From assembly GCA_046570105.1 (NCBI GenBank), contig JBKHVI010000036.1, forward strand, positions 1-29,378: a stretch of DNA of 29,378 nt. The letters run 5' to 3'. A program made the position numbers. Below, in pieces: positions 24,001-29,378 of this stretch (the stretch's first letter is position 1; each line of letters starts with the position of its first letter). Origin of the DNA: Bacteriovoracia bacterium (GTDB lineage: Bacteria; Bdellovibrionota; Bacteriovoracia; Bacteriovoracales; Bacteriovoracaceae).

Positions 24001-27000
24001 GGGCGACTTCGCGACTATTTACACACCAAAAGGATTGAGCTTATGTCTCAGAAACCACGTCCAAACAGTGCCGGCGACACTGGGTGAATTCGAGAAATCC
24101 ACAACCTGGGCCTTATTAATATATCGTACGCCACCCTTCACGCTCATGGAATTGAGCGTTGTGAGGTAGGAATCTGGGGACGTGTTATCGCAGCTTTGCC
24201 CGTATAGAGAGAGGGCGAGTGCTTTTCCGGCCGTGCCTTCAGACCAGATGAAGTCTTGAGTGCTAGCAGGTGAGCGACTTTCGCTAAAGCCAATATACTT
24301 ACCTTCAGTTGTCGTTAAGCGACAGGAAGCGAGTAGCGATTGTTTAAATTTTTCTTTTTCAGGATGGCCCACAAAGGCCAAGGCACTCCAAGATTGATTA
24401 TCTAAATAGAACTCTTGGCGATTAATTTTTCCAGTTTGAATATTCACTCCAGGCCAGAAGTGACCGTTCTCTTTGTCCCACATTCCTAAGACAAATTTTT
24501 CAACTGCAAATTGTTTTTTCTGCCATCGCTTGGAACCTGTTAATTGATAGGCCAAACGATAAGTGGCATAAACATCAAGCGTATGTTCGAGTGCAACAAT
24601 TTCAGTTTCATTCCAAGCTGTTTTGGAATTATCCACTGATGAGAAAATGAGTCCTTCTCCATCGAGATAAGGAACTTTTCGTAAATGGAGAGAGAGATAA
24701 TTTAGCGCCTTATTCCATACGGGTGCAAAGCGTGGATCAGCGGTTTTTTTCTGATAAGTCAGTATGGCCAATCCTACCCAGGCAATCGCACCATGCGGTC
24801 GCATATCGCCTTCAGTTGGATGAGGACTTGAGCCATCGAGATGATAAGAAAAATACCAGCTGCCGTCTTTGAGTTGCAATTTCTCAAGCGCCAATATGAG
24901 TCGCTTCGCTTCTTTAAATTTCTTGGCCTCAGTAAAAGCGATAATCGCTAACGCCTGATCGTAGATATAGGAGCGTGGAAAATTTTGATAACTCTGAATG
25001 AGACTGGCATGGCTGCCCAAGGGACGCATTTGAGTCGAGAGCCAATCAAGCTCACTGGCCTGGGTCGTGCCCAAAGCGAGACTCAATAGGCCTATTGTGA
25101 TGAGCTTTTTCACTCCCCCAAACCCCTCTGCATTCCTGTTTATTCACGACCGTTATCGTCAGGAATAAGAAATAACTTGAGCGTTTAGGTGTGCCTCTAT
25201 AGGAGCGCTGAACGGAAAAACGAAGAGTTAGCAGCAAGGCTTTGCATATAGGGGAGGGTGTCGGTCTTTAAATGAGAGGGAAAGTCTCGCCAAGGCAGGA
25301 TGTGCTCCTCGGGTACGTAGCGGAAAGTGAAGTTAATCCGACGAGTGCGAAAGCCTTCGATGGGAGGGCCTAGGAGTTCGCCGCGTTTGTCTTCTACCCG
25401 TTGAACGCGATGAAAGGTTTGCTTCTTCCAGCGATCACCGCCAAAGATTTGCAACGATGAATCCTCTAACCACTGCGAGAGGACTTCGTTTCGTTTCCCT
25501 AAAGTGGATTTACCTTCAACGAACTGAAAGAAAGCGCGATCACCTAAAGAGAGCGAGCCCACCGGGCCTGGCTCAAAATCTTTATGCTCACCCACGCGAG
25601 CATTATCGACCCATTTTCCCTCTGAAAACTCGCTTCCGTAGAAATTGATGAGACACGTATTTAAGCGCCATTTCTCGGGAACAAAATTTTTGGGAAATCT
25701 TTTTTTTGCGATAAATTCAATTCGATCCACGATATCAGCTAAAAGTTTTGGATAGCTTTCCGCACGCACACAACGATGCTGAATCCCCTCAGGCGGATGA
25801 TAATAATCGAGACAGGCAAATTGCCAATTTCCCAACCAGTAAACAGGTCGCAAAAGTCGTCGCTGTTTATCTCCTTCGGGAGGGGGGTTGTGTTCAGAGA
25901 AGCGCATTTCCCAAAGGGGATGAAGCGTCCCGATCCACTTTAAAAGTTCGGCCCTTTGCTCACGCGTGAGAAAAAGTGGCTGATAAATCAGCCCTAAAGG
26001 GAGTTCAGGTGATGCTTTGGGAGTACGGGCCATAAGAGGGCTTAGAACTTCGGGGTTTTGCCGTCTAGCTCCTGTGGAAAAAATACCCGATCTTAACTAC
26101 TTAAGCCCCCTCAGCGGTATATTCAGAGTGTTTAAAAATCAGGAGGGGCCATGGCCCTAATAATCGAAAAAGCACGTCTCGACGATGTCGACGATCTGTT
26201 AAAACTCTACTTTGAAATCTACGGGCCATCTTACCCCGTTAAGTACGGCACGGATCGTAACTTGATGGCACAAGTTATCCAGTCAGAGTCTTATGTTTGG
26301 TTAGTCGCGCGTGACACGGAAAAAAATAAATTAGCTGGTTCGGTAGTTTTTGAACTCGATCGCGCTGATCGCGTGGGTAAAGTTTCTGCTGCCGTCGTGA
26401 GAGTGGCTTATCAAGGCCATGGACTTGCGACCAAGATGATTCGTCCGCAAGTCGAAGCCCTTCTAAACGAAGGTGTAGTTGATTCGATGTACACCACGGT
26501 TCGAACCGTGGCGATGGGACCGCAATTAATTTTTATTAAATCTGGTTTTATCCCTCTAGGGATTTTTCCTAATGCGCATAAACTTGCGGACTATGAAACC
26601 TTCACGCTTTTTGCCAAATTTCGTCCAGGTGTTCTTGAGAAGCGTCCTGCTCTTCGCACGCACGGTAAGCTGGCACCGATTTATGCTGTTCTCAATAATG
26701 AGTTGCACGAGCGTAAATTCCCCATGGCTTCCGTGACCTTCGATCCACCGATGCCGATGACGACGAATGATAAACTCGATGTGAAGTTTGAATGCATCAT
26801 CGCTCCTAATCACGTGAAGCGCCAATTCTTTAAAGCATTCACCGATCCTTATGATCGCTTCTATCCGTTTCATGATCCCAATACATTAATTGAATCAGAA
26901 GATGGTGAAACACAGATTTGGGCCTATCTCTCAAAAGGGGATGGTTACTGCGCGATTGTGAATTTTGGAAATCCAGTTTATGAATTGCGCGGAGTCTTTC

Positions 27001-29378
27001 GTTCTCTGATGCGTCTCTTACGTGAGCAAGGTGTGACGTATATCGAAGTTTTGATTGGCGCTGAACATATTGATTCCATCGAAGTTTTGATTCAATCGCA
27101 GTTCCTTCCCTCCGCTATTTATCCAGCGATGATGACTCGCGATGGAGTTCCTATGGACTTTGTCGTTATGAGCAGAACAGTTGAACCGCTCAACTTCCGC
27201 GGTATGACGATTAATAGTCACTTCAAACCTTATATGGATCAGTACGTAGAGCTTTGGAAGCAGATGCATCTAGATACCCTCGAGGTGTTTAATGACTACG
27301 TCTAGTGTGGTAGTCCCTGATTCGACACTGCTCGCTCACGTGCAACAGATGTGTGATGTCGCATCACCTTATGAGTTGCGTGACGATGAATTATTCATGA
27401 AGGCCATGCGTGAAGTGAGTGCTTGGCATGTGGAAAACTGCCCATTTTATCGCGCGCTCTCATCACAAGAAAAATTCTCACCGAACAGTCTCAAAACAAT
27501 AAAAGACTTAAGCACTGTTCCAAGTGTTCTCGCGCATTTTTTCAAAGAGTATGAAGTGCTCTCGGTTCCGCCCGAGCAAGTTGCTCTTCATCTCACTTCC
27601 TCAGGTACGACAGGTCAGAAGTCTCAGGTGTTCTTTGATGATTGGAGTATCCGCGCTCCCCAAGGCATGCTTGATCGTATCTTCGAGCACTATGGTTGGG
27701 TCACTCCCAAACAGAAAGTAAATTATCTGCTTTACACCTATGAGACGGAAGAAGGCTCAAAGCTTGGCACGGCTTACACGGATCACTATCTTTGTAAGTA
27801 CGCACCCGCCGAAGAGGTCAGCATCGCTTTAAAAATGCAAGGCGATGGCTCTCATAGTTTTGATTTTGCCGGAGTGCTAGCGGCTTTAAAGCGTTTCGAA
27901 AAATCAGGTCTGCCTGTTCGTCTCTTTGGCTTTCCGGCATTCTTGAATGAAACGCTGGAGCGCATGGAGCATTTAGGTATCAGTTTGAAGCTTCATCCTG
28001 AATCATTAGTTTTTTTGGGTGGAGGTTGGAAAGGTAAGGCCTCAAAAGCTATTCCTAAAAAAGATCTCTACGCTCGCACCACTAAGTTACTGGGCATTCC
28101 AGACGAGCGCTTACGCGATGGATTTGGTTCAGTTGAGCATTGTATTCCTTATGTAGAATGCGCTCATCATGAATTTCATGTACCTGTCTGGTCGGAAGTT
28201 ATCATTCGAGATATTCACACACTCAAACCCGTTGAAAAAAACCAAGTCGGTTTTTTATCTTTTGTCTCACCTTATATGACCTCGATGCCGGCCCACGCCG
28301 TTACCATGGGAGACCTTGCATCTCTGCATGACAAATGTCCCTGCGGTAATGAGCGACCGTACTTCCGCTTAATGGGAAGGGCCGGGACGACTCAGAATAA
28401 ATCTTGTGCCATTGCGGCAGCAGAAATCTTGGGGAGGTCTTAAATGTTTCAAGATCTCACTCATCAAATTAATCATTCGCTAGGGCTTACTCTTAGCATG
28501 GGTCAATTATTAAAGGCCCTGCAGCTGATGAGTGAGGAGTTTTCTCAAGGTTCTGCTTTTCGTAAAAAAATGGAAAACATTTTGAGTCTTCATGGTGTGC
28601 CTCAACACGAAATCACAGAGGGCATGGAAGGGATCAAGGAATTTTTAAAACCAGCACTCCTCAAGAAAAAATTGGCCCGCGAATTAGGCACGGAAAATCC
28701 CTTTGCGCTTGAGCGTGCTGATTTCACGCAAGAAGTTTTTGAAGGATGGGCGCCTCTAGGTGTACTCGTGCATGTTACTCCAGCGAATGCGTGGACTGTT
28801 GGCTTTTTAAGTGTCATCGAAGGTCTTCTTGCTGGTAACCTCAATATTCTTAAACTCTCATCGACGGATAGTGAGTTTGCAACGGAGTGTTTGAAGCGCT
28901 TGGGTGAACTTGAGCCCACCGGCGTTCTTAAGACTCGTTTGATCTCGGCGAAAATTTCTTCGAAAGATAAAGAGCAAATGAAAGCGATGTTGTCACACGC
29001 TGATGGCGTGGCCGCCTGGGGTGGAGAAGAGGCGATTCGCGGATTAAAAGAGCTCACGCCAGAAGGCGCGCGCTTTATTGATTGGGGCCCAAAAATCTCT
29101 TTTGCTTATTTCACTGAGGCCCACACTCAAACTCATGAGATCGAAGCCCTGGTGCGCGAAGTGTGTGATGGCGATCAGCAAGCGTGCTCGGCTCCTCAGT
29201 GTGTTTATTTGGAAACTGAGAGCGATGAAGTCTTAATGAGTTTTGCCAAAAAACTCGCGGCTGCTTTTGAAAAGTTGAGTGCGGATATTCCTGGACGTAC
29301 TCCTGATACAGCGGAAACTTCCGAGATCACCGTGGTGACTCGCATGCAAGAACTGAAGCGTGCCATGAATCAAGGTGA

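Follow-up and report, generated by a model that had tools for sequence, protein, structure and literature searches.

What do luxE- and luxC-like genes produce when they lie behind a GNAT gene at the end of a contig from a member of Bacteriovoracaceae? The window (the whole stretch of DNA analyzed, 29,378 nucleotides) breaks off within the last of these genes. A preliminary description had placed three open reading frames at 26151-27305, 27292-28443, and 28444 to the end on the forward strand, with the luxC-like one cut by the contig end; these coordinates were reproduced, the last frame being open after 311 aa. The features are as follows.

26141..26146, + strand, Shine-Dalgarno-like AGGAGG, 5' of the GNAT gene (read from the sequence)
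26151..27305, + strand, tandem GNAT gene, 384 aa (ORF; PF00583 at residues 16-117)
27292..28443, + strand, LeupA orthologue (LuxE-type), 383 aa (ORF; PF04443, E 2e-32)
28444..29378, + strand, LeupB orthologue, 5' 311 codons, open at the contig end (PF05893, E 5e-57)

The GNAT and LeupA genes overlap by 14 nt and the LeupB gene abuts the LeupA gene, each of the three frames being preceded by a Shine-Dalgarno-like stretch. GC content of the cluster (0.45-0.46) equals that of the flanks and thus gives no sign of recent arrival. A sigma-70-like promoter was not found in 25900-26300. Rfam, searched with the window and five related loci, returned one tRNA only and no riboswitch, for which reason the idea of cofactor salvage was dropped. 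Contigs from four DNA sequencing runs span the genes without indels and extend beyond the contig end; the sequencing runs searched included no RNA run with these genes, which has no bearing on expression.

The earlier count of 243 homologues was reproduced, and a profile scan with the GNAT protein returned 192 relatives. In the loci of the best 80 of these 192, a LuxE-like gene was always present (80/80), and in 79 it lay directly downstream of the GNAT gene, as the preliminary description had held. Its three-gene unit has to be revised, as four genes make up the unit in this lineage and an MFS gene frequently precedes them: of 72 loci that extend far enough, 47 have it directly upstream (by clustering, 50 of 80). 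The third gene encodes a fusion of LuxC with a PaaK-type ligase (~820 aa) in 66 of 69 loci with room and is split into two genes in the other three; in the closest relative (L002) it comprises 823 aa, LuxC followed by a C-terminal PaaK-type ligase. A fourth gene, for a stand-alone PaaK-type ligase (~420 aa), comes next in 62 of the 64 loci that extend far enough. On this comparison, the contig end hides half of the unit, and the window holds the front part of a four-gene cluster; the 3' half of leupB and leupC had no match in the genome's own assembly beyond the window contig. Hosts of the best 80 loci (of 192) are mostly Bdellovibrionota, together with Obscuribacterales, Algicola, Smithellaceae, and six actinobacterial records; two cultured streptomycete plasmids have the gene order C-(MFS)-GNAT-A-B. 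Phylum-wide, the GNAT profile matched 56 of 301 genomes, and 36 of 67 within Bacteriovoracaceae, where one relative is 98% identical in the GNAT protein.

A leupeptin cluster, leupABCD, has reportedly been described by Li et al. in 2020 for Klebsiella michiganensis, Xenorhabdus bovienii, and Photorhabdus. Five components are published for leup: an MFS, a LuxE/PaaK protein, an acyl-CoA reductase, a PaaK-family protein, and a GNAT (bioRxiv 10.64898/2026.08.25.747093, partial text); leupeptin is reported to be made by the leup operon in K. michiganensis (PMC11480411, partial text) and, in X. bovienii, by a reductase together with separate AMP-dependent ligases (PMC11212599, partial text). The leup locus of the K. 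michiganensis type strain was located via the published leupA primer (PMC8283571, partial text). Compared with its products, the window LuxE-like protein is 50% identical to LeupA over 373 aa (E 2e-126) and the LuxC fragment (311 aa) 35% identical to LeupB over 243 aa, while the full LeupB of relative L002 reaches 37% over 769 aa with the same two domains, and the relative's fourth gene 42% over 423 aa of LeupC. For a selected subset of loci, 64 ligase domains were placed in a quick tree; there the fused ligases of the window type form a clade with LeupB, and the stand-alone ones a clade with LeupC, both at 100% SH-aLRT. A quick LeupA tree (62 rows, long outgroup branch) placed the window type and the proteobacterial clade on a 100% branch against a divergent form treated below, the deeper order being weakly supported. 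The proteobacterial clade falls inside the tandem-GNAT type only via branches of 86-93% support in this quick tree with its long outgroup branch, and no direction of transfer is read from it. A scan with LeupA returned at least 564 relatives; of the best 80, 79 are proteobacterial loci arranged (MFS)-A-B-C-D, and the remaining one, from Streptomyces, is of the tandem-GNAT type. The stand-alone LeupC ligase is present in four of five same-genus genomes with a close LeupA.

By sequence, the window genes are part of a leup-related cluster, with orthologues of LeupA and LeupB in the window and of LeupC in relatives, and none of LeupD; we file it as a leup variant because three of the four biosynthetic genes are orthologous and no LeupD counterpart was recovered. 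Orthology to the characterized leupABC makes amino acids and peptides, rather than fatty acids, the likely substrates. Shared with leupABCD are LeupA, the two-domain LeupB, and LeupC in A-B-C order, a GNAT gene, often an MFS gene, and a unit without NRPS or carrier protein. The two differ in that a 305-aa LeupD stands last there, whereas a 384-aa tandem GNAT stands first here, in an MFS of another subfamily or none, in the host (Bacteriovoracaceae), and in the existence of sister forms that lack one ligase or combine the two GNAT types. The MFS of the related loci is unrelated to that of Klebsiella leup; an exporter of this kind was found neither beside the window genes nor, with the query used, in the 88% complete genome. 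It is also absent beside five Photorhabdus/Xenorhabdus-type loci, except for one reversed copy, and is therefore not strictly defining for leup. Non-core frames beside three Photorhabdus leup loci had no match in the genome studied here. We consider it probable that this is a leup-type cluster building a short N-acyl peptide aldehyde without NRPS. That the product is a peptide aldehyde appears likely to a similar degree; that it is leupeptin itself or a close Arg/Lys analogue is conceivable, though we would sooner doubt it.

The preliminary description had assigned to the 384-aa protein an N-terminal GNAT fold, which is confirmed, and a second, unnamed alpha/beta domain, which proves to be another GNAT fold. 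Model quality and the GNAT match were close to those first reported (pLDDT 92.3; Foldseek E 1.7e-10 over 169 columns). The CoA-binding motif QGHGLA is conserved in domain 1 (approximately residues 1-160) and lacking in domain 2 (approximately 210-345). Modeled alone, domain 2 reached a pLDDT of 86.9 and a Foldseek GNAT match of E 1e-7, and nearly all of its top 50 hits in structure comparison were GNATs (best Z 11.4, rmsd 4.0, 135 aligned). The strict CoA motif occurs in domain 1 of 36 of 72 aligned homologues and in domain 2 of one of 57. Two GNAT folds in one chain are also found in 2WPW from the clavulanic acid pathway (Z 12.4, rmsd 6.0, 232 aligned), which differs in having 11% identity and no pathway in common. 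Searched against PDB sequences, the GNAT profile matched single-GNAT proteins only, and weakly; an Atlas search gave unnamed GNAT clusters. A tRNA-dependent, Fem-type role was not favored, FemA appearing only at rank 47 (Z 8.6).

This protein had been seen as taking the place of LuxD; with leupABC orthologous here, it probably stands in for LeupD instead. Tandem GNAT and LeupD gave no BLASTP match, their profiles matched over 92 N-terminal columns only, with none in domain 2, and the LeupD profile had no match in the genome studied here. The tandem GNAT is not a LeupD orthologue but probably its replacement, and likely serves as the N-acyl capping enzyme. The best-surviving alternative keeps the assembly line and gives the tandem GNAT to self-protection, product binding, or MFS-linked export, in which case a product with a free amine may cyclize to a pyrazinone signal, or a housekeeping enzyme may do the capping. 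Six other Bdellovibrionota clusters (type-3; L175-L178, L180, L181) speak for it, since in them a LeupD-like gene (99.6% profile match) occurs alongside a tandem GNAT, and the latter is devoid of the CoA motif in the five aligned; so do the frequent MFS gene directly upstream (47/72 loci), three MFS-GNAT fusions, a tandem GNAT copy without adjacent leup genes (L179), and the known leup-derived pyrazinones (PMC11480411, partial text). In window-type clusters, however, the tandem GNAT is the sole linked acyltransferase, since the LeupD profile matches just five of 151 family genomes (one across most of its length); moreover, the window copy retains QGHGLA, and the GNAT gene is still coupled to leupA in the 25 of 72 loci without MFS. 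We regard this alternative as improbable, though it deserves weight, and retain capping as the likely role.

Catalytic residues are kept in both lux-like proteins. C248 of the window reductase (DQQAC) aligns with the DQQAC cysteine of 7XC6 LuxC (chain count 285; paper number 296), which we take to be the catalytic one. K247, R363, and C372 of the window LeupA align with K238, R355, and C364 of LuxE, of which the first two serve adenylation and the third carries the acyl group to the LuxC cysteine (PMC9157457, partial text); LuxE R354 is not conserved. GGGWK is found in 169 of 171 sequences, the C-terminal cysteine in 168 of 171, and Q-x-A-C in 155 of 161. The nearest solved ligases include NatL2, which joins two small acids in an ATP-dependent step without CoA (PMC7204872, partial text). 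NatL2 (6SIW) and AjiA1 (6WUQ) belong to the same PaaK-like fold family as the leup-type ligases treated here, from which they are distant (E 1e-12 to 2e-9), and differ in their aromatic substrates and in having no reductase.

The acyl activation and reduction coupled to N-acylation that had been predicted for the locus stand as far as adenylation and thioester reduction go, N-acylation probably does so too, and the prediction had missed that there are three adenylating domains. Making an N-acyl tripeptide aldehyde requires an acylation, two amide bonds, and a reduction; these correspond to the GNAT, the two PaaK-type ligases, and LuxE/LuxC, and from this we infer the following steps and their order. 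GNAT domain 1 would transfer an acyl group from acyl-CoA to the amine of the first amino acid; LeupC and the C-terminal ligase of LeupB would activate one carboxylate each by adenylation and make one amide bond apiece, so that an N-acyl tripeptide acid results; the LuxE-type LeupA would adenylate the final carboxylate and hold it as a thioester on C372, then pass the acyl group to the cysteine of the LuxC domain, where reduction with NAD(P)H would yield the aldehyde. The product would leave the cell, through the linked MFS where there is one, and would inhibit serine or cysteine proteases.

Against this reading it has to be said that 37-50% identity does not fix substrates. The orthologous enzymes may have changed theirs, in which case the product would be no peptide or no inhibitor (an aryl-amide aldehyde or an alcohol, for example); PaaK-type ligases act mostly on aromatic acids, and the branches leading to the characterized clade are long. 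Hand-picked active-site segments, however, are 71-86% identical to those of three producer species, against 36-50% overall (weak evidence, because ATP motifs are included), and genes for aromatic precursors or for tailoring do not recur in the 80 neighborhoods (best 80 of 192). A change to such a product seems rather unlikely to us, and the peptide aldehyde is kept as the probable one. Within the fused ligase, one presumed pocket position is occupied by A or S; the three producer species named have I, L, or V there, a difference by which the side chains may depart from Leu-Leu-Arg.

The LuxCDE fatty-acid reductase known from luminous bacteria (7XC6) shares with the window unit the LuxE-type adenylation, the thioester on a C-terminal cysteine, the LuxC-type reduction, and the aligned catalytic residues; it differs in that LuxD and LuxAB were not found here, that LuxC is fused to a PaaK-type ligase, and that scores lie below the equivalog cut-offs (NCBIfam LuxE 90 of 550 bits; LuxC 63 of 750 bits, and 73 of 750 for the full-length LuxC of a relative). 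The absence of luciferase and LuxD claimed before was upheld, with no PF00296 and no PF02273 in the 87.8% complete genome, and PF00296 does not recur in the 80 neighborhoods (best 80 of 192). Within the genus, PF00296 was found in none of six other genomes and the LuxE-like gene in all six; genus g15 has the reverse (PF00296 6/6, LuxE-like 0/6). A fatty-acid reductase of the LuxCE kind that supplies N-acylation with a fatty aldehyde or an acyl group, or else a remnant lux operon, would agree with the Pfam LuxE and LuxC matches and the conserved LuxE and LuxC residues, but is very improbable, for it fails to explain the two additional ligases, the proteins are far under the NCBIfam cut-offs, the window LeupA is much closer to LeupA (E 2e-126) than to the solved LuxE (77 bits), and PF00296 occurs in 29 of 151 family genomes without tracking the cluster. 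On these comparisons, the unit is not a broken light-making operon, and fatty-aldehyde chemistry is not the best reading. The label "bioluminescence" that RefSeq gives to these reductases is thus a common misannotation.

The preliminary description had called the three-gene unit common in the family, with LuxE in 10 of 20 genomes; a LeupA-like match was obtained here in 74 of 151 family genomes: 51 close, 22 at 34-40% identity, and one weak. Stand-alone LeupC occurs in 50 of the 151, namely in 49 of the 51 genomes with a close LeupA and in none of the 22 with the divergent form (co-occurrence counted by hand from listings, related genomes not being independent); the two close-LeupA genomes without LeupC are the one studied here and another that is 82% complete. 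Seven loci of the divergent form were examined, and all consist of GNAT, LeupA-like, and reductase-ligase genes with no fourth gene. Four of the seven, one of them in the same genus, share their neighbors with the window, namely AlkB-like, ABC-F, and solute-symporter genes. The single ligase of this form makes up a separate clade in the 64-domain ligase tree. Having one ligase fewer, the divergent form is predicted to give a dipeptide aldehyde.

The leup operon has been discussed as a narrowly distributed host-colonization trait of Gammaproteobacteria (PMC11480411, partial text). A leup cluster in Bdellovibrionota was not described in the literature searched, most of it outside subscription papers and supplements. 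Term searches of the Bdellovibrionota genome papers PMC11656739 and PMC13147790 gave nothing on leup, and the available portions of 10.1101/2020.10.26.356543, PMC11865988, and PMC13707504 contain nothing on leup clusters in this phylum. Leupeptin-type chemistry is known; its spread to predators and the shorter form appear to be undescribed.

Roughly half of the Bacteriovoracaceae genomes sampled carry related clusters, which are also present in Actinomycetota and Melainabacteria. The predatory lifestyle of the host is inferred from its family; the finding would extend leup from host colonizers to free-living predators, for which no such product was found in print. The clusters vary naturally in their amide-forming ligases (one or two) and in their acyltransferase (two kinds), which would offer a direct test of how a carrier-free assembly line sets length and sequence, and leup-type variants would be a source of new protease inhibitors. 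More speculatively, we propose three points, which we would not expect to hold jointly, although together they merit consideration: Bdellovibrionota may hold the main diversity of leup-type clusters, with the proteobacterial leup clade branching from it and the number of ligases setting peptide length; four-gene forms may lead to tripeptide aldehydes and three-gene forms to new dipeptide aldehydes, the two alternating at one chromosomal site; and predators may use the products on proteolysis during attack, be it by the prey's or their own proteases, or against grazers.

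A third cluster type, found at six loci (L175-L178, L180 and L181), consists of a 490-aa gene, LeupA and LeupB (the LuxE-type adenylating enzyme and the reductase-ligase fusion) and a tandem GNAT, accompanied in most by an MFS gene. The tandem GNAT of this type lacks the CoA motif (QGHGLA in domain 1 of the window protein) in the five copies aligned. In the 490-aa gene, a part resembling LeupD, the GNAT of the characterised leupeptin cluster, is joined to an N-terminal domain, which had no match in a Pfam search and looks like an anti-sigma-factor ATPase fold. At L168, the 490-aa gene occurs with A and B only. 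Single chains combining MFS transporter and tandem GNAT were seen in P0133, P0208 and P0176; reductase and ligase of LeupB are two separate genes in L042, L061 and L062.

A further arrangement lies on a Streptomyces europaeiscabiei plasmid:

L188 3361-9507, LeupA-like gene and unfused LuxC-like gene

Genes for YcaO, DUF692 and MBL-fold proteins lie beside the LeupA-like gene (42%) and its partner, as does an ORF of 51 aa; together they may form a RiPP cluster in which the peptide C-terminus is reduced. On a Streptomyces plasmid, three 'peptidase inhibitor family I36' genes (L186 11440-12807; a single locus) are located near a tandem-GNAT leup-type cluster.

Other features of the window are:

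2176-2257, minus strand, tRNA gene (Rfam RF00005)
24019-25113, minus strand, secreted-looking 364-aa protein
25197-26033, minus strand, divergent AlkB-like 2OG-Fe(II) oxygenase gene (PF13532)

The AlkB-like gene adjoins both the four-gene and the three-gene cluster type in the window's genus and some related genera; it is absent from the wider set of loci and is therefore probably only a neighbour of the cluster. The 364-aa protein, without match in Pfam and NCBIfam, is encoded beside it in close relatives as well.

Seven loci (L163-L167, L169 and L170) carry a three-gene form of tandem GNAT, LeupA-like protein and reductase-ligase, without the stand-alone ligase LeupC, for example:

L166 6544-11238, three-gene cluster

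L014 and L081 read GNAT-A-B, with no LeupC in the fetched flank despite room downstream. In L163-L166, the three-gene form occupies a chromosomal site equal to that of the window's four-gene type. The predicted product of the three-gene form would be a dipeptide aldehyde.
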